Shown in pieces: positions 5,375 to 32,384 of a DNA stretch of 37,457 bases. A program made the position numbers and the translations under genes. Source of the stretch: a virus; the UHGV virus genome UHGV-1707574; one strand, given 5' to 3'. How positions within the stretch are numbered: position 1 is the first letter of the stretch; each line of letters begins with the position of its first letter. The notes under the pieces were generated by a model that was given only the letters and a program-made list of their open reading frames with translations, was not told the origin of the DNA and made no database searches.

Positions 5375-6568
5375 GTGACCTGGGACGATCACAAGAAGAA
5401 TTTTGCTCGCCTGGCGCGAGATGGTGGTTACACCATCGCACAATATGCCGCCGAGTTTAATCTCAACCCAAACACCGCACGTCGTTATCTCCGTGCATTC
5501 AAAGAAGACACCGGAACAGCGGACAGCCGTAAGCCAAATAAGCCTGTCAGAAAACCACTAAAAAGCATGATCATTGATCACGCCAATGATCAACGTGCAG
5601 GTGATCACATTGTGGCTGAAATGGCTGAAAAACAAAGAGTTAATGCTGTTGTCAGTGCCGCAGTCGAGAACGCGAAGCGCCAGAATAAGCGCATAAATGA
5701 TCGTTCTGATGATCATGACGTGATCACCCGCGCCCACCGGACCTTACGTGATCGCCTGGAACGCGACACCCTGGATGATGATGGTGAACGCTTTGAATTC
5801 GAAGCTGGCGATTACCTGATAGATAACGTTGAAGCGCGGAAGGCCGCGCGCGCTATGTTGCGTCGGTCCGGGGCTGATGTTCTGGAAACCACTCTTCTGG
5901 AAAAGTCTCTCTCTCATCTCCTTATGCTGGAGAACGCCAGGGATACGTGTATTCGCTTGGTTCAGGAAATGCGCGATCAGCAAAAAGACGATGATGAAGG
6001 AACTCCGCCTGAATACCGTATCGCGAGCATGCTAAACAGCTGTTCCGCGCAGATAAGCAGCCTGATCAACACCATTTACAGCATCCGGAATAACTATCGA
6101 AAAGAAAGCCGGGAGGCGGAAAAGCACGCTTTGTCTATGGGGCAAGCTGGCATTGTTAAGCTGGCATACGAACGAAAGCGTGAAAACAACTGGTCAGTGC
6201 TGGAGGCAGCTGAATTCATCGAGGCGCATGGAGGGAAAGTACCGCCCCTGATGCTGGAGCAAATCAAAGCCGATCTGCGTGCTCCTAAGACCAATACCGA
6301 TGATGAGGAAAGGCAAACAGCCGTCGGTGGCCCTTCTCTTGAAGATCTGGACAAAGTTGCGCGAGAACGGGCCGCCAACCGCCGCGCCGATGCCGCATTG
6401 TGGATTGAGCAGCGTAGGGAAGAAATCGCCGATATCGTTGATACAGGCGGTTATGGAGATGTTGATACTGAAGGTGTATCAAACGACCCATGGCTGGAAC
6501 AAGACCTGGACGAAGACGAGGAGGAAGACGAAGAAGTTACCCGCAAGCTATACGGGGATGATGATTAA
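5375..6568 (+). CDS. pacA: PacA, terminase small/pac-recognition subunit, 397 aa
   Basis: GTG start with AAGGAAG SD; pac hexamer cluster lies inside the 5' part; acidic C-terminus; overlaps pacB start. Confidence 0.9.
5568..5726. other. pac packaging site (two clusters of TGATCA/G hexamers carrying Dam GATC sites)
   Basis: TGATCA at 5568, 5575, 5587, 5602; TGATCG/TGATCA at 5698, 5710, 5721 (another TGATCG at 5749). Confidence 0.8.
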
Positions 6569-8052
6569 TGGCCAGAAGTTGCGTAACGGATCCACGTTGG
6601 CGCGAGCTGGTGGCGCTATATCGTTATGACTGGATTGCTGCCGCTGATGTTTTGTTCGGCAAAACACCTACCTGGCAGCAGGATCTGATTATTGAGTCTG
6701 TGCAGGAACAGGGTAGCAAGACATCTGTTTCGTCTGGTCACGGTACCGGGAAATCAGACATGACTTCTATCATGATCATGTTGTTCATAATCATGTATCC
6801 AGGTGCCCGTGCCATTATCGTTGCGAACAAAATTCAGCAGGTAATGACCGGTATATTCAAGTACATCAAGATAAACTGGGCTACTGCCACCAGCCGTTTC
6901 CCATGGCTTGCTGATTATTTTGTTCTGACAGAAACCGCTTTCTATGAGGTTACAGGTAAAGGTGTATGGACTGTAGTACCGAAGGGCTTTCGTCTGGGAA
7001 GTGAAGAAGCTCTCGCCGGTGAACACGCAGATCATCTTCTGTATATTATCGATGAAGCCTCCGGTGTCAGTGATAGAGCTTTCGGTATCATCACCGGTGC
7101 TCTTACCGGACAGGATAACCGCATCTTATTACTGTCACAGCCTACACGCCCAAGCGGCTATTTCTACGATACACACCATAAACTGGCCAAGCGTCCTGGT
7201 AACCCTGATGGCGTTTATACGGCGATCACGCTTAACAGTGAGGAATCACCGCTGGTAACGCCAGCATTTATCAAAATGAAGCTGGCGGAGTACGGCGGGC
7301 GCGATAACCCTATGTACATGATTAAGGTACGCGGCCTATTCCCTAAATCACAGGATGGCTTCCTTCTTGGACGTGATGAGGTTGAACGTGCAACGCGGCG
7401 GAAAGTCAAGATTGCCAAAGGATGGGGCTGGCTTGCATGTGTGGACGTTGCTGGTGGTACGGGAAGGGATAAGTCCGTTATCAATATCATGATGGTGTCC
7501 GGCCAGAGAAATAAACGCCGTGTAATCAACTATCGAATGCTGGAATACACAGACGTTACAGAAACGCAGCTTGCCGCCAAAATTTTCGCAGAATGTAATC
7601 CTGAGCGATTCCCAAATATCACCATAGCGATAGACGGCGATGGGCTGGGTAAAGCAACGGCGGATCTGATGTACGAGTATTATGGTATTACCGTACAGCG
7701 TATACGCTGGGGTAAAAAGATGCATAGCCGTGAAGATAAAAGCCTGTACTTTGATAAGCGTGCTTATGCCAACGTTCAAGCCGCAGAGGCCGTAAAATCA
7801 GGTCGTATGAGACTGGATAAGGGTAATGAAACTATTGAGGAAGCGTCGAAAATCCCTGTAGGGATTAACTCCGCAGGTCAATGGAAGGTGATGAGTAAGG
7901 AGGATATGAAGAAAAAACTCAACCTGCACTCACCAGACCATTGGGATACATATTGTTTCGCTATGCTGGCGGATTATGTTCCCCAGGATGAAGTGCTTAG
8001 CGTCGAAGACGAAGCGCAGGTTGATGAAGCTCTGGCATGGCTTAATGAATAA
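6568..8052 (+). CDS. pacB: PacB, terminase large subunit, 494 aa
   Basis: Walker A GHGTGKS, Walker B LLYIIDE, C-terminal acidic nuclease-like motifs (CVDVAGG, AIDGDG, SPDHWD). Confidence 0.9.
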
Positions 8053-12430: not shown

Positions 12431-12457
12431 AGCCGCCGCTGGTGGCTTTTCTTTTTT
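12431..12457 (+). terminator. Hairpin plus T-run immediately upstream of the mat-like start
   Basis: AGCCGCC-GCT-GGTGGCT followed by TTTTCTTTTTT. Confidence 0.35.
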
Positions 12458-12468
12458 GTAGGGGCGTT

Positions 12469-13110
12469 ATGGATAAGAAAATATGCGTTGTTTCGATGAG
12501 CGTCGGCAAACCGGCATCAATGACTGCTGCATGGATCAATAACGAGCTGATAATGGCTGAGCGGACCAGCTACCCTGAACGCCGCCGCGATATGGAACTC
12601 CAGCTGCTGCGCGAATTGCGAGAAAAAGAGGAAAAGGGTTTTATCGTGCTGGTGGAAGAGGAAAACAGCTTTATTACTGGTCGAGTTGGCCAGCGTGTAA
12701 GGTTGCGCGATCCCTTCATGAACGGCAGGCCGGTACTAATTGAGGCAATGCAGATTTATAAGGAGCTGGAACGCCAGAAAGCAATCAAGTTACCGCGCAA
12801 GGAATCCGGCAAATACATCCTCCACCAAAGCATCTTCGATTCCGAACACGATAAAAAAGGCGATGAATTTTTCAACATCAACTGGAGCGAAATAACGACA
12901 GAGCACGTTCTGACGTTGTTATGCTGCTTCGCAACGGAATATAACAACGTTGCAAGCGCCGACTACATTAGGGCAATGGCAGGAGAAGTTGATGCCCGCC
13001 AGGAATCATCGTTACTAAGCCCTCTGATTAACATAATTCGCGGAACCCAAACACTGGCACAAAAACGGGTGCCTAAAGGGGAGTTAACTGGAAAAGGAAA
13101 TTATCTATAA
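12469..13110 (+). CDS. mat: Mat-like protein (particle maturation), about 213 aa; name by synteny only
   Basis: ORF 12442-13110, most likely ATG at 12469 (MDKKICVV...); composition like the P1 backbone; follows ref. Confidence 0.6.
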   Translation: MDKKICVVSMSVGKPASMTAAWINNELIMAERTSYPERRRDMELQLLRELREKEEKGFIVLVEEENSFITGRVGQRVRLRDPFMNGRPVLIEAMQIYKELERQKAIKLPRKESGKYILHQSIFDSEHDKKGDEFFNINWSEITTEHVLTLLCCFATEYNNVASADYIRAMAGEVDARQESSLLSPLINIIRGTQTLAQKRVPKGELTGKGNYL

Positions 13111-13166
13111 ACGTCAATGCATTAGGGTATACTTCTCCATAGAACTATAAGTAAATGGAGTAAGTA

Positions 13167-14474
13167 ATGAGCGAATATGTTGAGTTAGCATACGCTGCCG
13201 CTACAAGCAGGCTTTGTCTATTTACCGGGACTGGCTTTTCAAAGGCAGTCTCGAACGGTGAAGCTCCAACGTGGAAGGAACTATTAAAAAAAGTTTGCAG
13301 CAAAGTTCACAATGCCAAAAAGTTGGAAGACACGTTATTCCCTGATGATAAACCACCAGCACTGAGTCTTGAAGAAGCCGCACAAATACTATCTTTGAAG
13401 CTCAATATTGAGGGTAAGTCGATTTATGATGAAATTGTTGACATCATATCTCCAATTCAACTTGGAGAAGACATATCAAATATAAAAGATTTTTTCCAAA
13501 AAAACTCATTCCGTGTCATTACAACAAATTATGACAAGTTGGCTGAATGCTTGGTTGGAGATGAAAGTGTGCAGTCTATCACGCCCGGCCTGCCAATTCC
13601 AAAGTATCCATCCAAGGTGAAAATATATCATGTTCATGGTTCTATTGATTCGCCAAAAAATATGATTGTCACTTCAGATGATTACTTCAGATTTATAAAT
13701 TCCGATACTTATTTTTCACGAAAACTTAGTACGATGCTGCATGAAAATACAGTTGCGATATTAGGGTATTCTTTAAGCGACACAAATCTTAAAGCAATTA
13801 TAAATGACTATAAAAAATTTTCGAAAAATAATGCCCTGTGCTCTAATATCTTTTTGATATCTCGCAACAAAGTAAGTCAAGATATGAAGGATTATTACTT
13901 CTATTGCTTTGGTATAAGGGTAATTGACAATACAGAAATAGATTGTTTCTTTAGTCGATTAAGTTATAAGATTTCTCTCATTAAAGACATCATTGAAAGA
14001 GCGCGCGAAAATATCAGAAAAGTTGTTTCGGGGGCTTACACTTATAAAAATGAATATCTTAAATTAGAGGATTCATTTTATCAAATTATATCATCAATTA
14101 TATCGGAAGGTTTAGATTGGAATGATGATAAAGTCGTTTCTCTTTTCGAAAGGATAATAGAAAAAAAGAGAAAGTTAACAAGGAATAACGGAGCGTGGGA
14201 GCAATATGAACAGTTGGCAAAATGGCTTATATATTTTGGAAGCATCATAGAGGTTAGCAATACTAAGTATGAAAAAACATATTTAGACGCAGTTGAATAC
14301 TCGATGGGTCATATGAGTAAAGAAAGGAATTGGGGAGTTTCTTGGCATGCTTACAGAGCTTGGGAAACACGATGGCCTGCAATAATTGCCTCAAATAGAT
14401 TAATGATAAAAAACCACATTGAAACATTAGGCACCTTGAAGGACGCCAACCTTATAGTTAAGAATATAGTGTAA
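13167..14474 (+). CDS. SIR2-like (sirtuin/ThsA-type NADase fold) protein with unassigned C-terminal domain, 435 aa; candidate standalone anti-phage defence gene
   Basis: ATG 13167 with GGAG SD; motifs LFTGTGFS (res 19-26), ITTNYD (N121), IYHVHGS (H157); strongly AT-rich relative to flanks; terminator downstream. Confidence 0.8.
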   Translation: MSEYVELAYAAATSRLCLFTGTGFSKAVSNGEAPTWKELLKKVCSKVHNAKKLEDTLFPDDKPPALSLEEAAQILSLKLNIEGKSIYDEIVDIISPIQLGEDISNIKDFFQKNSFRVITTNYDKLAECLVGDESVQSITPGLPIPKYPSKVKIYHVHGSIDSPKNMIVTSDDYFRFINSDTYFSRKLSTMLHENTVAILGYSLSDTNLKAIINDYKKFSKNNALCSNIFLISRNKVSQDMKDYYFYCFGIRVIDNTEIDCFFSRLSYKISLIKDIIERARENIRKVVSGAYTYKNEYLKLEDSFYQIISSIISEGLDWNDDKVVSLFERIIEKKRKLTRNNGAWEQYEQLAKWLIYFGSIIEVSNTKYEKTYLDAVEYSMGHMSKERNWGVSWHAYRAWETRWPAIIASNRLMIKNHIETLGTLKDANLIVKNIV

Positions 14475-24848: not shown

Positions 24849-25103
24849 TTATCGCCTTCGTCTGCGTGCCATATATTTTCGCACCGCGCGACGTGGGCAA
24901 TCTGAAGCGGTTTCTTTCTGCTGCATCAATCTTGCAGCCATGCTCAAAAATGTCAGGCACAGCCGAAGCCCGGCATATAATAGCGGTTCCAGTGGCCACG
25001 TCTCATTGAGCACATATACCGCCATGAAAATCGAGTCGAAAACTATCGCCGCCAGCGATAACTTCATTGTCGAAAGTCGGCGGAGCTGCCGGAGTTTATT
25101 CAT
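24849..25103 (-). CDS. Small membrane protein, 84 aa, translationally coupled to lyz
   Basis: ATG overlaps the lyz stop (ATGAATAA); two hydrophobic segments and a poly-Arg C-terminus. Confidence 0.45.
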   Translation of the reverse strand: MNKLRQLRRLSTMKLSLAAIVFDSIFMAVYVLNETWPLEPLLYAGLRLCLTFLSMAARLMQQKETASDCPRRAVRKYMARRRRR

Positions 25104-25653
25104 TGACCAGTCCCGTCAGGCAAAGCTGGCGTTCTTTTTCACGGCGAATCTTTAAACCTCGCAGGGGCACGCCGTTACTGTTCACGAAATCAGGGAGATG
25201 GTTACACATATTCACCCATTCTCCTTTCTGCGCCCACTTGTGGATGGACGTTTCTACTCGCATGCCTCGCGCTTTGCTGTAGTAGGTCCGTAAACTATTG
25301 CATCCCATATTGAATGCCGCGCTTGTCATTGCGCTGAAGGCATTATCGGGCATGTCTTTGCCCCGGAAGTGCTGGTTAATACAGCGTTCAGCGATCAGGA
25401 TATTCTTTTCCCAATCAGCGGCGATTTGCTGGTCGGTTTTTCGCACGCCTGGCGTTACCCCGTGTGTATTACCAATCCCGTCAGTCCATACACCCGCCGG
25501 GCACATGTATGGATCACGTCGGCAACCTTCAGCGTTACCAATCAGCTCAAGCCCCGCCGGGTTGGTTCGCACATTGCCATTACCCATCACGATGGTAATC
25601 ATCACCGCGATAGCGCAAATTGCACCGCCTCCTGCGGCTGTTTTTCCCTTCAT
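25096..25653 (-). CDS. lyz: Lyz, SAR-type endolysin (lysozyme), 185 aa
   Basis: Starts MKGKTAAGGGAICAIAVMITIVMG (signal-anchor-release N-terminus), GAGGT SD; the ORF frame is open upstream to 25752. Confidence 0.9.
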   Translation of the reverse strand: MKGKTAAGGGAICAIAVMITIVMGNGNVRTNPAGLELIGNAEGCRRDPYMCPAGVWTDGIGNTHGVTPGVRKTDQQIAADWEKNILIAERCINQHFRGKDMPDNAFSAMTSAAFNMGCNSLRTYYSKARGMRVETSIHKWAQKGEWVNMCNHLPDFVNSNGVPLRGLKIRREKERQLCLTGLVNE

Positions 25654-25741
25654 AAAGACCTCATAAGCGAATTTTTTACGCTCCAGGACAAACACCCATT
25701 CACAGCCAATACCGACTGACTCGATCCCTTTAGAAGGTACA

Positions 25742-25760
25742 GGATAATGCAAATCACTTG
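25742..25760 (-). promoter_or_regulatory. Candidate late promoter element upstream of lyz
   Basis: On the - strand CAAGTGATT-N4-TTATCC, about 90 nt upstream of the lyz ATG. Confidence 0.4.
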
Positions 25761-25786
25761 TTAGCTACGTTTCAAAGATATACATT

Positions 25787-25803
25787 ATTGCTCTAATTAA
25801 TTT
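25787..25803 (+). promoter_or_regulatory. C1 operator upstream of ssb
   Basis: ATTGCTCTAATTAATTT, 16/17 to consensus, 20 bp before the ssb start. Confidence 0.65.
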
Positions 25804-25822
25804 ATTTTATTAGGTGAGATAA

Positions 25823-26311
25823 GTGGCACAACGCGGTGTAAATAAAGTCATCCTGATAGGTACCCTGGGACAAGACCCAGATATCAGGTATATACCAAAT
25901 GGCGGAGCAGTCGGAAGACTCAGCATCGCAACGAATGAATCATGGCGCGACAAGCAAACAGGCCAACAGAAAGAGCAAACAGAATGGCATAAAGTCGTTT
26001 TGTTCGGAAAACTTGCTGAAATTGCGAGTGAGTATTTACGAAAAGGTTCTCAGGTCTACATCGAAGGGAAACTTAAAACCCGTAAGTGGACAGATGACGC
26101 CGGTGTAGAACGTTACACGACGGAAATTATCGTCAGCCAGGGCGGAACCATGCAAATGATCGGCGCTCGCCGCGACGATTCACAGTCCTCAAATGGCTGG
26201 GGGCAGTCAAACCAACCTCAAAACCACCAGCAGTACAGCGGTGGCGGCAAACCTCAGAGCAGCGCCAATAACGAACCTCCAATGGACTTTGAAGACGATA
26301 TTCCGTTTTAG
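25823..26311 (+). CDS. ssb: Ssb, single-stranded DNA-binding protein, 162 aa
   Basis: GTG start; OB-fold N-terminus, Gly/Gln-rich linker and acidic tail DFEDDIPF. Confidence 0.95.
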
Positions 26312-26513
26312 AGTTTATGAGTAAAAAACGACTGAAAGAAAAGCGGTGGTCCAGACGCCGACAAAAGCACGAACTCGCAAACAAACGCCAAAGTTGGCAA
26401 TGGCACGCGCTTTTCACGAAAAGAACACCCCGAGATATTGCGTTCGCTGGTGGGAAAACATTCCTGACCCACCTGAAGGCGCAATACATCAGGTTTTAAG
26501 CAGAGGAAAGACT

Positions 26514-27191
26514 ATGAATAACATGACAACGAAAGAGCTTTTGACGGCACTTCCAAAATACAAAAGCCATAAAACAGTTCGCGCCTCAAAAATCAAAGAT
26601 ATCGAAATTATCGCCCTAATGGATGTGGTCCTTTTTTGCAACATCGAAGTCGTTGAGCCAGAAGGGGTAAAAGTCCATGTTGATAAAATATTTTTGCAAA
26701 AACACCGACCAGAAATTGGCGGATATCTGGTCGCTTATGAGGACGGTTCTCTGTCCTATTCACCAGAAAAAACATTTGAAGAAGGCTTTAGTCGGACTAA
26801 CGACTTCTTCGAAAATGGGGTATCGCTCAGCATTGAAGGTCACAATGGGGTGACATTCATTACAGCCAGGGACGTAACTATTTCTGCTGGCGGTATCGCT
26901 ACTCTACAAGAAGAAATCGACCTTGAAGCAGCCGACTTTTCTGACGCGCTGATGTGGCTGAAGGATGGCAAGAAAGTTGCCCGACGCGGGTGGAACGGCG
27001 AAAACCAATTCTGCTGGCTGGTTCCTGAAGGACAGTACCCGGCACGAATGGAAGCCATTAAGGGATATTTCCCCGGCGACCTCGTTCCGTATGGTGCTTA
27101 TTTCGCCTTAAAAAATGCACAAGGTGTAGTTGTTCCGTGGGTTCCTTCTGTAGGCGACTTACTGGCATGTGACTGGTTTGTAGTGGAGTGA
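26514..27191 (+). CDS. Two-domain protein, 225 aa; C-terminal DUF2829/Tad2-like domain
   Basis: ATG 26514 with GAGGAAAG SD; C-terminus FSDALMWLKDGKKVARRGWNGENQFCWLVPEG...VPWVPSVGDLLACDWFVVE. Confidence 0.7.
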   Translation: MNNMTTKELLTALPKYKSHKTVRASKIKDIEIIALMDVVLFCNIEVVEPEGVKVHVDKIFLQKHRPEIGGYLVAYEDGSLSYSPEKTFEEGFSRTNDFFENGVSLSIEGHNGVTFITARDVTISAGGIATLQEEIDLEAADFSDALMWLKDGKKVARRGWNGENQFCWLVPEGQYPARMEAIKGYFPGDLVPYGAYFALKNAQGVVVPWVPSVGDLLACDWFVVE

Positions 27192-27197
27192 TTTAAC

Positions 27198-27980
27198 GTG
27201 GAAAATACTAAAGCAATTCAATACCGCCTGCGTAATGGTCAGAGTGTCGAAGTGACCATCAATAATGATGGTGTGCCTGGCGAAAAGGTTTCGATCTCTG
27301 ATCTGGCTATCGAAAAAACCATCATGTGCCACCTTGGCTTTACTGAAGAAGTGAGCAAAAAGCATGGTGTAGCAATCTGGAGCGCAATGGATACTGGTAT
27401 GCACAGATTCATTACTGCTCGTACCCCAGGGATGACCATGATGGACCTCATGCAGATTGCGCCGCTGTTTGAATGTGAGCCTTTAGATGTATTCAGCAAT
27501 CCAGCTATCTGCCAGCAGCTATATGGTGAGATGAAACTCGCGGTTACCCCCATTGTGCTGCATGAAGGATCGCTTGCTGGCGTGTGGAAAGTGGAGCGTA
27601 TTTCAAGCTACATGCCTTTCCATGTCAACGGCGTAATCACTGGTGAAAATCAACCTGTTTCCGTTATAAAGTCAGACCTCAAGCGCGCAATTCTTGAAGC
27701 AAGTTGTCGAGTTGTCGGCCTGGGCAAACAGTCTTATGTTTCCTTCCCGGCTGGCCCTGAAGGCCCGGCAGAAATTCTGATTATGGATGCCGATCTGCTA
27801 TGGCAAATACAGTTTCTGATTGGCAAAAGCATCATCCGCGCTGAAGAACTCGATCAGTACATTACCTGCACGATGACGGATGAAGTCAAAAGTGTGGCTA
27901 TAGCCAATGCCCGGAACCTATGTCGTGCTGCATTAACAGAACTGCAAGAAAACACCACGGAAGAGGTGGAAAGTGATTAA
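27198..27980 (+). CDS. Hypothetical protein, 260 aa
   Basis: GTG start with GGAGTG SD; stop overlaps the next gene's start. Confidence 0.65.
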   Translation: MENTKAIQYRLRNGQSVEVTINNDGVPGEKVSISDLAIEKTIMCHLGFTEEVSKKHGVAIWSAMDTGMHRFITARTPGMTMMDLMQIAPLFECEPLDVFSNPAICQQLYGEMKLAVTPIVLHEGSLAGVWKVERISSYMPFHVNGVITGENQPVSVIKSDLKRAILEASCRVVGLGKQSYVSFPAGPEGPAEILIMDADLLWQIQFLIGKSIIRAEELDQYITCTMTDEVKSVAIANARNLCRAALTELQENTTEEVESD

Positions 27981-29067
27981 TCGTATACAGAATGAATCTG
28001 CCTGGTTAGCACTGATAGAACGGTATAAAGACAATTGGGAACTGGCAGCAAAAGAGTTGCTTGATATTGAGTTAACACCTCATCAAGCAAAAATTATTAA
28101 CGCGATAAAGAACACCGGAGCCAAAGTCACTGCCACCACACCACATGGTATTGGGGAAACCTCTATTGTGGCAGTGATTAGCATCCTGCAAACAATACTG
28201 TATTCGTGTTCCCGTACAGTGGTTGTTTCTCCTGCGATTAACGATAGTCGAAAAACAATAATTGACTATATGTTCCGTTATTGGGAGCGAGTTACCCAAA
28301 AACACCCTTTTCTTGGCAATTATTTCAGAATACACCCTGACAAAGGGTTGGTGCATATCAGTGAAACATGGGGATGCGTCTATATAACCTATTGTCTGAA
28401 TAACGAAGAGTCTCTGGCTGGTTTTACTGGACCGCACGATCTTTTCATCGTTATTAACTCGGCGGAAATCAGCGATCGCGCTCATGCAGTGATAACTGGC
28501 AATTTAACCAATTATGACTCGCGCCTGCTGTTGCTGTCGAAACCATCGGAACGCGAGAAAGGGTACTTTTATGATTCGCATCACCGGTTGGCCCATAGTA
28601 AAAACAATCCTGCTGGTTTTTTCACGGCGATAACTCTAAACACAGAGGATTCACCTCTCGTTTCTGAAGCATATCTTGAATTCAAAGCCAAAGAGTTTGG
28701 TGGGCGCAATAGCGATGAATATCGCCGATTGATCTTGGGGAAATTCCCCGGGATTCGGGAGTTGATGGAAAAGTCATCTGTTCCCCGTAATATGCACTTC
28801 ACAATGACTGACGGTAGTAAATGGGTAGTGCCTACGATCGTGATCGCCAAACACCATGCGAAACATCACGCTCAAAAACACAACTCCAGCACATTAGACT
28901 GGCTGAAGGCCTATACAATACCGTTATTCTCGGCAAACCATAACGCTATAACTGAATGGGCTAAACAAATCCCCTGGCAGGATGTGGCTGAAGAGGCATT
29001 TGTCGAAAAACCACCAAGAGATTTGCACGAGCACTGTTGGCTGACATCAGAAAAAAGCTTCTCGTGA
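27973..29067 (+). CDS. PacB-paralog: terminase large subunit ATPase-like domain with degenerate Walker motifs and no nuclease domain, 364 aa
   Basis: GTG start with GAGGTGG SD; extensive similarity to PacB residues 1 to about 270 in this same window, but GHGTGKS becomes PHGIGET and IIDEAS becomes VINSAE. Confidence 0.75.
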   Translation: MINRIQNESAWLALIERYKDNWELAAKELLDIELTPHQAKIINAIKNTGAKVTATTPHGIGETSIVAVISILQTILYSCSRTVVVSPAINDSRKTIIDYMFRYWERVTQKHPFLGNYFRIHPDKGLVHISETWGCVYITYCLNNEESLAGFTGPHDLFIVINSAEISDRAHAVITGNLTNYDSRLLLLSKPSEREKGYFYDSHHRLAHSKNNPAGFFTAITLNTEDSPLVSEAYLEFKAKEFGGRNSDEYRRLILGKFPGIRELMEKSSVPRNMHFTMTDGSKWVVPTIVIAKHHAKHHAQKHNSSTLDWLKAYTIPLFSANHNAITEWAKQIPWQDVAEEAFVEKPPRDLHEHCWLTSEKSFS

Positions 29068-29070
29068 GGT

Positions 29071-29097
29071 AAAAATCCCGCCGATTGGCGGGATTTC
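29071..29097. terminator. Bidirectional terminator between the + cassette and the dar operon
   Basis: AAAAATCCCGCC-GATT-GGCGGGATTTCTT. Confidence 0.7.
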
Positions 29098-29098
29098 T

Positions 29099-29407
29099 TC
29101 AATATACGATCTGGTCTACATGATCACCAAAATCATCGTCGTCGTCCTCATCGCCACCATCTACTGCTGGCCAATCAACAAACCAGCCAGCGTAAAGATG
29201 CAGCGTTCGGAGAACATCACTTGCGGGAGCATCAAGGGTGTTAACGAATCCCATATAGCTATTGGGATTTGCCCCAGCTATGGCTTCAGCGATCATGTCC
29301 TCGGTAATGTCACCGGAGATAATGCTTAAACGCCCGGAAACTTCTTCATTATCATCAAATTCGATAATGGCATCTCCACCTAATGGCGCTGCGATTTTAA
29401 TCTGCAT
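29099..29407 (-). CDS. Small acidic protein, 102 aa (last gene of the dar operon)
   Basis: ORF with poly-Asp tract DGGDEDDDDD; overlaps the upstream gene by 11 nt. Confidence 0.55.
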   Translation of the reverse strand: MQIKIAAPLGGDAIIEFDDNEEVSGRLSIISGDITEDMIAEAIAGANPNSYMGFVNTLDAPASDVLRTLHLYAGWFVDWPAVDGGDEDDDDDFGDHVDQIVY

Positions 29408-32384
29408 TATTTAGCTCCTTTGCCACACCTAATAACAGTTCCAGCAATCCGTCACCATTCATCAGTGATGCGGCAGCGGCCTCTTTGTCATGATACAACT
29501 GAAGAGCCATAGAGAATACTTCCGTTGCTGACGTTTTGGAAATAGTCGGTGATTTCTGCCGAATTTTCCCGGTGTTACTTACTGAGGCTGGCGGGTATAC
29601 CTTCGCCATATAAATATTACTCAATCGAGATCTGAAGCACCATTCAGGCTTGCCACGCCCACCGATATTGACGAAAGATGGCTTATCCCCTTCAACATTG
29701 GCCTTCAGGAATGACCGGGCTTTCTCTAACAAACCAGGGTTACTGTACTCAAGATGATGACCCAGCTCGTGCCACAGTGCACTTGCATTTTCATCGTTCA
29801 AATTGACAGCAACAACACCATTTAGATTTGCATATGCCCTTCCCTGGTGGTGAACTACCTTTGATAAGGTCGATATTTTCCCGCCAGTCAGGCGATAAAT
29901 ATCAGCAAGTTCCTTGCGCAGGTCTATCCCACCATTCTGTCCAGCGCGGGCTTCTTCCACTTCTTCTGTGATAAAAGAGTCGGCCCACTCAAGAGCTTTT
30001 TCTTCAGATACGGATGAGTTTGCGATCGCACTGTTCATGGCAGATAACACTTTCTCGTGGACCGAACCCATACTTCGCTGATTCATTTGCCAGCGTGTCT
30101 GCGGGTTATATGAGAATCGCTTAAGTAGTTGGTCAAGCTGCTCAAGTTCTTCTTCACTGACATACTTTTTAGCCTCACCAATAATGCCAGGGAGAATATT
30201 GCCGTTAGGATTAAACGCTCGCGAAAGGAAGAGTTTCAGCGCCCCCACGCCCTCCGATGCTTCAATATCACCAATAACCCGGTTAACAATGGCCGCACTC
30301 TTCGGATTAGCATCTGCCAACGCTCTGGCTACGATTTGCAGGGACGATACGACCTCACGCTGCATATCAGTCCTGATCTCATCAATAAACTCTGGCGTTA
30401 TGCCGTGCTCTTTAAGGATATCCCGGCCTTCCGCCGTTACCCCATCGATATCACCGACATGTTTATTAACACGACTTTGCAATGCCTTAAATGCCTTCAG
30501 AATTCCACGGGCATCATCCGCTTTACTAACGGCCTTCCTGAATGCTGGCAAGAAGTCTGAGTTAACCTCATTTTGTTGATCGGCCCACTGAATGGAGGCT
30601 TCTTTCATCTCGTCCAGAGTCAGATCACCCAACGCGGTATGGTCTGTGAATATGAGCGACAACCTCTGAACCATTTCTGCCAATGGTGATGCCGAATGCG
30701 CCGCGCTAAGGAATGCTTTCACCCTGGTTGGGCGAATGGAAAACCAGTCAATAGCTGGTGGCATATCTCCGTTTTTTATCGCCTGCGCTATCTCGTCAAA
30801 GCCATCGCGCCCAAGGGAGGATGCGTGATTTAACAAGCCGCGAAGTAACGAATTGCTGATACCGAATAATCGGCACCATTTTTTCACGTCGGCAACAGGC
30901 ATTCGAACAAAATGCGCAAGCACTTGTACAAGCTGTTCATCCTGGGGATCTGTGCGGGAAAGCAGCCTGATCAGATGAATAATGTCTTTGATGCCGGATG
31001 CCCGATGTAATAGCAAACTGGTATACGGAGCAACACCGTTGTAACTACCGCCGGAAACGGACTCGAAAAGACCGCCGGATATCCCTTGCATGCCTTCGTA
31101 TTCCAGTTCCTGAGACACCTGGCGAAGGATATCCTGTAACGACACATCGCCGCCGCCAAACATATCCCCGAGCGCCTGGCCCTGGTGCTGTAACTCATCA
31201 TTGATACGTTGCGCCATCAACTTAAAGGCGGTGGCCATACGCTTCGCGCTACGGTTATTCGCGACGATGAACAACGCGAGTGCTTTCACTTCCGGGGCCG
31301 TTTCGCTGAACATATCCCCCTGAGCAATAACATCGGTAATATGCTGGCCTGACTCCTTCGATTGCCTTACCAGGTCTACCGCATCTTTCAATGCCGCCAG
31401 CGCCTTTTTATCGAGGCTATCCGCTGTCTCAATGCCATCAACAATAGTTGTCACAGCCTGCTTGTGCGCTTCTCCTGATAAAGCCTGCATCTGGACAAAA
31501 TCATTGGCTGCCGCATTAAGCGCCGTCAGAACATTACGCATATCCGGATCAGGTTCTTCTGCAACCATCCTTACCAGGCGCGCATCCTTATATGCCTTGG
31601 CAAAGATCGCGTTTTGTATACGGTCAACAAGTTGCCGTGTTGGTCGCCCATCTTCAGTTACAAGGCCAGCCGCCTGTGTGGCACCAACTTGCGTCATGAA
31701 TCCGCGAATAAACGCGTCATTACTGCGGCTAAGCAGATCTCCGCTTTCTGACGGGTTAAACAACGCCATCATCGCCGGTGTTATGCTGTCGGCATCAACA
31801 AAAGCCTTTTCACTGGCTGCCATTTCCTGGAGATCAGAAATATTTGAGTCCTTGGCAAACTGAACACGGTCAACCTTCGTTAACCGGCGGCGCACCAGTA
31901 CCGGAGCCGTCATTGATTCAACCTTTTCAGGCCGTATGCCGAATTCGGTCGCATGTTCAATCAGGTACTCCCGATACCGATCCGCATTACCGTCCTGATA
32001 GGCTTTGATGATCCCCATGGTCCGTCCATTACCTGACTCAACGGCATTGTCCTCACCAATTATCGGCGCGCCATGGCTGGATAAACCGGAATCAGTAAGC
32101 TGAGCTGGCCGCAAATCTTTGGATATCTGGTTAACCTGAAGAAGGCTGGATGCGCGGGTCCGGTCGCGCGGCTGAAGTTCCTGGGGATAGTCAGGATTAA
32201 TTTTCCCATCCAGAGTATTGGATACCAAAAGAGCTGAGGCATCGACGATATCAAACGCTGTTTTTACCTCGTCTCCCTTCGCTGTCACCACATACGAAAC
32301 CCGCCCATAATCGGGCAGGTTCTTTAGCAGCTCGATCAGCGTTTCTATGCTGGTGGCCATTACCACCTGATCGCTTAAGCTCAT
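29397..32384 (-). CDS. ddrB: Large dar-operon protein, 995 aa (DdrB-like by synteny)
   Basis: 995-aa ORF; contains a WHELGHH (HExxH-type) motif near the C-terminus. Confidence 0.75.
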   Translation of the reverse strand: MSLSDQVVMATSIETLIELLKNLPDYGRVSYVVTAKGDEVKTAFDIVDASALLVSNTLDGKINPDYPQELQPRDRTRASSLLQVNQISKDLRPAQLTDSGLSSHGAPIIGEDNAVESGNGRTMGIIKAYQDGNADRYREYLIEHATEFGIRPEKVESMTAPVLVRRRLTKVDRVQFAKDSNISDLQEMAASEKAFVDADSITPAMMALFNPSESGDLLSRSNDAFIRGFMTQVGATQAAGLVTEDGRPTRQLVDRIQNAIFAKAYKDARLVRMVAEEPDPDMRNVLTALNAAANDFVQMQALSGEAHKQAVTTIVDGIETADSLDKKALAALKDAVDLVRQSKESGQHITDVIAQGDMFSETAPEVKALALFIVANNRSAKRMATAFKLMAQRINDELQHQGQALGDMFGGGDVSLQDILRQVSQELEYEGMQGISGGLFESVSGGSYNGVAPYTSLLLHRASGIKDIIHLIRLLSRTDPQDEQLVQVLAHFVRMPVADVKKWCRLFGISNSLLRGLLNHASSLGRDGFDEIAQAIKNGDMPPAIDWFSIRPTRVKAFLSAAHSASPLAEMVQRLSLIFTDHTALGDLTLDEMKEASIQWADQQNEVNSDFLPAFRKAVSKADDARGILKAFKALQSRVNKHVGDIDGVTAEGRDILKEHGITPEFIDEIRTDMQREVVSSLQIVARALADANPKSAAIVNRVIGDIEASEGVGALKLFLSRAFNPNGNILPGIIGEAKKYVSEEELEQLDQLLKRFSYNPQTRWQMNQRSMGSVHEKVLSAMNSAIANSSVSEEKALEWADSFITEEVEEARAGQNGGIDLRKELADIYRLTGGKISTLSKVVHHQGRAYANLNGVVAVNLNDENASALWHELGHHLEYSNPGLLEKARSFLKANVEGDKPSFVNIGGRGKPEWCFRSRLSNIYMAKVYPPASVSNTGKIRQKSPTISKTSATEVFSMALQLYHDKEAAAASLMNGDGLLELLLGVAKELNNAD

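Follow-up and report, generated by a model that had tools for sequence, protein, structure and literature searches.

Which functions are carried by the three-gene cassette that lies between ssb and the leftward dar operon in the UHGV virus genome UHGV-1707574, and do its genes work as one unit? The window (the whole stretch of 37,457 nt that was analyzed) is a P1-like phage-plasmid, and the PLSDB plasmid NZ_CP069885.1 is 100% identical to it across the cassette. Clinical E. coli, Shigella and Salmonella often carry P1-like phage-plasmids, and a few variable loci determine which host defenses these elements can overcome. Alignment identifies the cassette as the IS1-free form of the isaA-IS1-isaB region of these elements, which has been published as highly variable under the names "region 2" (PMC9603915) and RD-2 (PMC6906374). 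With a little more confidence than doubt, we read this hypervariable locus as an early, C1-repressed accessory operon in which the first gene encodes a Tad2 sponge, and the second and third are separate cargo kept by selection.

The cassette (26514-29067) comprises three tandem open reading frames (ORFs) on the + strand downstream of ssb, as called in the ORF list: ORF1 (26514-27191, 225 aa from an ATG), ORF2 (27198-27980, 260 aa, GTG start) and ORF3 (27973-29067, 364 aa, GTG start). Six nucleotides separate the ORF1 stop from the ORF2 start, and ORF2 shares its last 8 nt with ORF3 (GTGATTAA), in agreement with the tight coupling described in the initial annotation. Shine-Dalgarno-like motifs precede ORF1 (AGAGGA), ORF2 (GGAG) and ORF3 (GAGGTG). 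The ORFs are genuine rather than chance: ORF1 (100% identity) and ORF3 (97%) match database proteins whose clusters have 453 and 851 members, ORF2 has a 96% identical cluster as its nearest, and all three are under purifying selection, with ratios of nonsynonymous to synonymous substitution rates (dN/dS) of 0.1-0.4.

By sequence, ORF1 has two domains, and the C-terminal one (26922-27191 with the stop codon, + strand; aa 137-225) is a sponge of the Tad2/DUF2829 family that falls in the ModTad2 clade. The Tad2-like profile PF11195 aligns with aa 141-224 over its positions 2-73 of 73, scoring 79.6 bits where the cutoff is 25 (E 2.5e-22), and ModTad2 (PDB 9eib) is matched at E 6e-20 with 40 of 89 residues identical (45%). 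Further PDB matches are 8v3e, HgmTad2/AcrIIA7 (E 4e-10) and SPO1 gp34.65 (E 7e-9). The protein is 100% identical to an NCBI cluster of 453 members named 'DUF2829 domain-containing protein'. These profile and PDB sequence matches bear out the sponge-like domain that had been noticed in the cassette. As with ModTad2 (9eib/8v3e) and SPO1 Tad2, the gene is phage-encoded and seemingly early, and aa 137-225 cover the whole domain. Proteins of the ModTad2 clade bind histidine-ADP-ribose (His-ADPR) and block type II Thoeris (bioRxiv 10.1101/2024.01.03.573942). SPO1 Tad2 binds glycocyclic ADP-ribose (gcADPR) and HgmTad2 additionally binds cyclic dinucleotides. Among phage-plasmids, DefenseFinder reports Tad2 in 56% of the P1-like and 93% of the D6-like ones (preprint, bioRxiv 10.1101/2025.09.12.675607).

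Early in infection or induction, ORF1 would thus sequester an ADPR-derived alarm signal made by a TIR protein, most likely the His-ADPR of type II Thoeris and possibly gcADPR, and the Thoeris effector would stay untriggered. ORF1 is the only one of the three genes for which we infer a mechanism. Characterized Tad2 proteins are single-domain tetramers of roughly 90-170 aa, whereas ORF1 has 225 aa, of which the first 135 form an N-terminal domain (26514-26918, + strand; aa 1-135) with a putative Dec-like oligonucleotide/oligosaccharide-binding (OB)-fold region and a beta-rich linker. These 135 residues have no Pfam match and fall into PHROGs 872 and 11049, neither of which carries a function label. 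A profile built from 15 homologs matches Dec, the decoration protein of phage L (6e3c, E 2.4e-6); this match is partial, covering Dec residues 51-121 only, including the motif GGYL...SY..E.AFE..Y. By this partial profile match the N-terminal domain may be akin to Dec, but here it is fused to a cytoplasmic sponge domain. In related P1/D6-type contigs, the Tad2 domain is joined to an N-terminal dUTPase (P0056), to a C-terminal crAss001_48-like domain (P0061/P0073) or to a tail-fiber repeat (P0023), which suggests frequent domain shuffling around the Tad2 sponge.

When would the cassette be expressed? Upstream of ssb lie the promoter P2ssb and the C1 operator Ossb (25758-25803, + strand; coordinates transferred from the P1 annotation), the presumed control point of ssb-ORF1-ORF2-ORF3. 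The 91-nt stretch that holds both shows a single difference from P1, outside the two annotated features. No promoter or + strand terminator was predicted between ssb and ORF1. We infer an early, C1-repressed ssb-ORF1-ORF2-ORF3 transcript, which would run from Pssb to a bidirectional terminator that also serves hxr/ddrB, and such early timing suits a sponge. The P1 late-promoter motif (AAGTGAYTT-N4-NANNNT) occurs seven times in the window, against 1.4 expected, at 713, 5320, 12321, 22022, 25741 (-), 34944 and 36067 (-), including positions upstream of pacA, prt and lyz; the scan of the window found none before the cassette. The P1 virion proteome paper makes no mention of IsaA, IsaB or Hxr. Given IsaA's absence from that paper and the lack of a late-promoter motif at the cassette, the suggestion that the module is virion-associated was not upheld.

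The promoter also bears on the proposal that ORF2 and ORF3 are a prophage-encoded defense or exclusion module shielding the lysogen from other phages. The locus is known as a hot spot for cargo (PMC9603915, PMC6906374), and P1-like plasmids also hold defense systems in their variable regions (bioRxiv 10.1101/2025.09.12.675607). However, the sole recognizable promoter is C1-repressed, so that no expression would be expected in the lysogen, and ORF3 has no effector-like domain. PADLOC found no match for ORF1-3, IsaB or Hxr at E values up to 0.01, and NCBIfam gave no matches either. We therefore consider a defense module very improbable and retain the accessory operon, with its sponge and separate cargo, as the preferred reading.

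How did the three genes come to lie together? Pairwise BLAST of the window against P1, 813R1 and SJ46 resolved the locus into a mosaic. Positions 25701-26517 correspond to P1 ssb and the first 171 nt of the annotated isaA; 26518-27201, the body of ORF1, are absent from P1 and 813R1; 27202-27981 (ORF2) are the rest of P1 isaA at 93.6% nucleotide identity; and 27982-29100 (ORF3) are absent from SJ46 and have IS1 and isaB in their place in P1. The P1 segment that holds IS1 and isaB (L001 3806-5518) found no match in the window. The cassette thus sits where P1 carries isaA-IS1-isaB, between ssb and hxr, and its ORF2 shares 94% identity with the IsaA core, but IS1 and isaB are missing, a Tad2 gene is added, and a paralog of the large terminase PacB stands in place of IS1 and isaB. 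The arrangement agrees with the one reported for pTZ20_1P. The alignment confirms what the initial annotation had only suspected, that the cassette corresponds to the IS1/isa region of P1, ORF2 being isaA in the same position, and confirms that IS1 is absent here. The annotation had also asked whether the genes are core, interrupted or variable in P1: the locus is variable, with isaA present in P1 and ORF1 and ORF3 absent from it. The cassette is therefore not one already present and characterized in P1, which has isaA only, an uncharacterized gene.

In the junction alignments, the IsaA core of P1 and 813R1 begins at the very ribosome-binding site and ATG that belong to ORF1 in the window. This places the Tad2 gene exactly between that ATG and isaA codon ~4, and ORF2, downstream of the insertion, has its own GGAG and GTG. 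The locus thus displays a Tad2 gene inserted with codon precision behind a pre-existing ribosome-binding site. P1 isaA (320 aa) and its SJ46 counterpart J46_0048 (281 aa) are annotated from an upstream GTG; the extension spans L001 2842-3012 (NC_005856 21569-21739) in P1 and has an equivalent in SJ46. Because this upstream extension carries in-frame stops in four relatives, the equivalent of ATG 26514 is probably the true IsaA start in P1 and SJ46, and the reference isaA would be over-extended at its 5' end. A 281-aa version of ORF1 from GTG 26346 was likewise rejected on account of in-frame stops in four related loci; since that reading is not conserved, the 225-aa call is correct.

Occurrence across plasmids speaks to whether the three genes form a unit. 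In PLSDB, isaA is found in 336 plasmids, ORF3 in 120 and the N-terminal half of ORF1 in 148 (about 100 at 95% identity or more), and all three occur together in 20, against roughly 35-40 expected if they were independent. With 20 plasmids holding all three and 336 holding isaA, the single cassette first described is not an obligate unit; by these counts, within the P1 lineage ORF1 and ORF3 appear beside isaA or are missing independently of each other. D6-like elements carry dut-Tad2-IsaA (48%)-dead large terminase subunit (TerL; 52%), in the same order as the cassette. In L011 the start of the dead TerL gene overlaps the isaA stop by 10 nt. The D6-like array converges on doc/phd/humD, not on hxr, and D6 itself has no dead TerL. 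All this is most simply explained by an old array of three genes that has lost its outer members repeatedly. On the preferred reading, ORF2 and ORF3 are separate, selectively maintained accessory genes in the same early 'anti-defense island' as the sponge.

Four considerations weigh against this view of the locus. The conserved order of isaA and ORF3 and their translational coupling in two diverged lineages could reflect a joint function. The Tad2 domain of ORF1 comes with an unusual 135-aa N-terminal domain, whereas the Tad2 proteins tested are short single-domain tetramers, and its ligand and oligomeric state are predicted. Co-transcription with ssb is deduced solely from the absence of predicted signals. 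Finally, an anti-defense role of ORF2 and ORF3 is read from their neighborhood alone; the earlier idea of an accessory anti-defense module is well founded for ORF1, through Tad2, and for the other two it draws on nothing but position.

ORF3 is the gene for which most alternatives have to be weighed. Its N-terminal domain (27973-28752, + strand; aa 1-260) is an ATPase-dead, TerL/PacB-like domain of the additional strand, catalytic E (ASCE) class, followed by a C-terminal tail (28753-29067, + strand; aa 261-364) unrelated to the TerL nuclease domain. A tblastn search of the window with ORF3 found pacB (6568-8052, + strand), which encodes the active large terminase of 494 aa and adjoins pacA (5375-6568). 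ORF3 aa 11-272 align with PacB aa 11-274, the ATPase domain, at 35% identity over 266 aa (E 8e-55). Aligned pairwise, PacB keeps GHGTGKS and IIDEAS intact. The Walker A motif reads TTPHGIGETS in ORF3 against SSGHGTGKS in PacB, replacing Lys with Glu, and Walker B reads LFIVINSAE against LYIIDEASG, replacing Asp-Glu with Asn-Ser. ORF3 shares with PacB the fold, a conserved Q-motif and the Walker A glycines, but lacks the catalytic Walker residues and the nuclease domain and has another C-terminal domain of ~100 aa.

The AlphaFold2 (AF2) model of ORF3 has a predicted local distance difference test score (pLDDT) of 87.6 overall and above 90 in the ATPase domain, and its best Foldseek matches in the PDB and BFVD are the TerL proteins of Sf6, P74-26, HK97, D6E and T4 (E 2e-9 to 1e-5). 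ORF3 thus retains the ASCE ATPase fold and is devoid of the Walker A lysine, the Walker B glutamate and the RNase H-like nuclease domain. Lacking three of the four defining TerL features, it is poorly served by the label 'terminase large subunit', though some records use it. A word-indexed search for relatives gave 3 and an exhaustive one 746. Residues 5-260 of ORF3 align with the N-terminal half of 470-570-aa proteins; some 65 full-length relatives have GxGK[ST], [DE]E and the nuclease domain, and in ORF3 and 12 short relatives (230-444 aa) the nuclease domain is missing, as are the lysine and the acidic pair.

ORF3 terminates 103 aa past the ATPase domain. BLASTP found no similarity between its tail and the PacB C-terminus, and AF2 models the tail as a beta-hairpin with helices at pLDDT 60-79. 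A relic of the PacB nuclease was considered for the tail and rejected, since BLASTP was empty and a standalone tail homolog exists. The same ~100-aa tail also occurs on its own in P0266 (123 aa) and as the C-terminus (positions about 400-500) of the 511-position phrog_17928, which has no function label. The 813R1 homolog of ORF3 (L002 3796-4866, annotated as 356 aa) is matched by tblastn for ORF3 aa 1-334 only, and the 813R1 allele therefore has a different C-terminal end. From these comparisons ORF3 is best described as a truncated, catalytically dead paralog of the phage's own PacB that has gained an unrelated tail. The dead terminase paralog of the initial annotation thereby stands, on the replaced Walker motifs, the missing nuclease domain and the 35% identity to PacB.

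Is such a protein still functional? A functionless, decaying remnant of a duplicated or captured pacB would have lost its catalytic motifs and nuclease domain and would often be absent, both of which hold for ORF3. Yet of the 120 PLSDB records, 119 match the query over its full length, with 115 of them at or above 95% identity. Within the P1 lineage the dN/dS of ORF3 is 0.25, and comparison with the D6-type copies, at 52% identity, gives about 0.15; such low values show that it is not a decaying pseudogene. A whole clade of similarly dead, nuclease-less relatives at 25-49% identity and the confident AF2 fold also argue against decay, so that we find a remnant hardly credible. With neither ATP hydrolysis nor DNA cutting open to it, ORF3 would most likely work by binding, its target being either a partner of PacB or a sensor of PacB.

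One way in which binding could matter is through DNA packaging. ORF3, possibly with IsaA, might attach to PacA, the subunit that recognizes pac, to the portal or to PacB, and either time the phage's own pac cleavage or poison the motor of a co-resident or superinfecting P1/D6-type competitor. Its likeness to its own PacB ATPase domain with every catalytic residue lost, its retention by purifying selection across about 50% divergence, and its translational coupling to isaA in the P1 and D6 lineages alike are consistent with this. So are a related dead copy that follows a Ref-like nuclease gene and, by similarity alone, a weaker PacB-N-like match upstream of pacA (L071). However, ORF3 is optional, as P1, SJ46 and D6 package normally without it; isaA is non-essential in P1; and the predicted early expression of ORF3 precedes that of the late genes pacA and pacB. 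A packaging modulator therefore seems unlikely to us.

Host sensors offer another partner. ORF3 might be a decoy or shield against sensors of the terminase ATPase domain (Avs1-3, Upx), occupying the sensor without the ATP-bound active site that activation needs. In the structures of EcAvs2 and SeAvs3, the sensors touch the active site of the terminase ATPase and the ATP bound there, SeAvs3 reportedly reading the active-site residues and the ATP ligand; a modeled Upx binds the terminase ATPase core, and T4 vs.8, a standalone TerL-ATPase paralog, engages EcAvs2 (bioRxiv 10.64898/2026.04.30.721860). Like ORF3, vs.8 duplicates the terminase ATPase domain of its own phage without the nuclease and is thus a precedent, but it retains Walker A and B and activates EcAvs2, whereas ORF3 has lost these motifs. 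That exactly the ATP-binding residues are lost, and that the neighbors of ORF3 are a proven anti-defense class (Tad2) and the dar/ddr anti-restriction genes, fits a decoy. Yet the argument is purely inferential, the lost features may leave ORF3 invisible to the sensors and not inhibitory, and a literature search on terminase decoys found no description. We rate a decoy as quite unlikely.

Taken more broadly, the dead PacB paralogs could be a family of terminase mimics in P1/D6-type phage-plasmids that, with or without IsaA, blind Avs1-3 and Upx or sabotage the packaging motors of rivals, an idea we offer as speculative and rather doubtful. If true, it would be a new phage route against terminase-sensing immunity or competitors; if not, we are looking at an ordinary accessory island. 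Both the locus with its variability and the presence of Tad2 in P1-like elements have been published before. The Dec-like/Tad2 fusion and the clade of dead PacB paralogs appear to be undescribed, as far as our literature search for terminase decoys or PacB paralogs shows. The sponge is ordinary, and the dead PacB copy is a modest curiosity.

Further dead TerL copies occur in other contexts. In another P1-like lineage (L099 7336-8792; also L100 and L101), a 263-aa dead TerL-ATPase paralog, P0153, follows a gene for a Ref-like RecA-dependent nuclease with a 4-nt overlap, in the place that mat occupies in P1. P0153 was tried as a homolog of P1 Mat and rejected, because P1 Mat has no similarity to ORF3, P0153 or PacB. 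Elsewhere, another dead copy sits after a radical S-adenosylmethionine (SAM) gene, and in a related viral contig (L071, about 1890-2460) a weak PacB-N-like/ORF3-like ORF (23-28% identity) lies upstream of pacA. A scan of genome contigs for dead copies returned mostly PacB orthologs and no new contexts for dead copies.

What, then, is ORF2? It is the IsaA core (27198-27980, + strand, 260 aa), matching P1 isaA codons 61-320. Its orthology with P1 IsaA (gp017) is seen in both sequence (94% amino acid identity over 259 residues) and position, downstream of ssb, and it belongs to phrog_2326 (1.9e-149). Its dN/dS against P1 is 0.10-0.11, which indicates strong constraint. The closest database cluster is 96% identical, and the family is narrow: 20 matches, all from E. 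coli P1/D6-type elements and including a 49% variant, with weaker relatives (25-30% identity) downstream of cre in other phage-plasmid lineages. ORF2 has no match in Pfam (even at E 10), the PDB, PADLOC or NCBIfam, and its profile found nothing in the PDB. The AF2 model has a pLDDT of 47.7 and is confident only at aa 35-110 (a helix, three strands and two helices), and the best Foldseek match has an E of 1, which is no fold match. The middle ORF is thus as featureless as first described. An Xre-type helix-turn-helix, proposed from the motif LGFTEE...PLDVF, was rejected, as neither Pfam at E 10 nor the PDB profile and Foldseek searches gave a match.

At its downstream end, the cassette meets a bidirectional hairpin resembling an intrinsic terminator (29073-29096, both strands), common to ORF3 and hxr. 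Its sequence, AAATCCCGCC-GATT-GGCGGGATTT, forms a 10-bp G+C-rich stem in the gap that separates the ORF3 stop (29067) from that of hxr (29099-29101). The folding energy is -21 kcal/mol on each strand (z -4.4 and -5.1), no shuffled sequence folds as well, and T-runs flank the hairpin on both sides, giving TTTCTT and TTTTTA tails. By these features it is a putative intrinsic terminator, as had been proposed from the letters alone, although a simple terminator scanner did not list it. SJ46, which has no ORF3, still keeps the flank homologous to the window from 29071 on, hairpin included (junction 27980/29071). Rfam had no matches in 25000-30000. Beyond the hairpin lie hxr (29099-29407, - strand), the last gene of the convergent, leftward ddrB/dar operon according to the ORF list and the P1 annotation, and ddrB (29397-32384, - strand).

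At the upstream end, ssb (25823-26311, + strand, 162 aa) is the first gene of the operon and is annotated as Ssb in P1, 813R1 and SJ46. The spacer between ssb and ORF1 (26312-26513, + strand) holds the AGAGGA ribosome-binding site for ATG 26514. It also contains a candidate ORF of 60 very basic aa (26317-26499, + strand), which starts 6 nt past the ssb stop and finishes 15 nt short of the ORF1 ATG; this frame is open in five related loci, with a ratio of nonsynonymous to synonymous polymorphism (pN/pS) of 0.3-1. Elsewhere in the window, the interval between the cre/ref region and darB holds two ORFs (222 and 435 aa; 12442-14474, + strand), in roughly the place of mat and res in P1.

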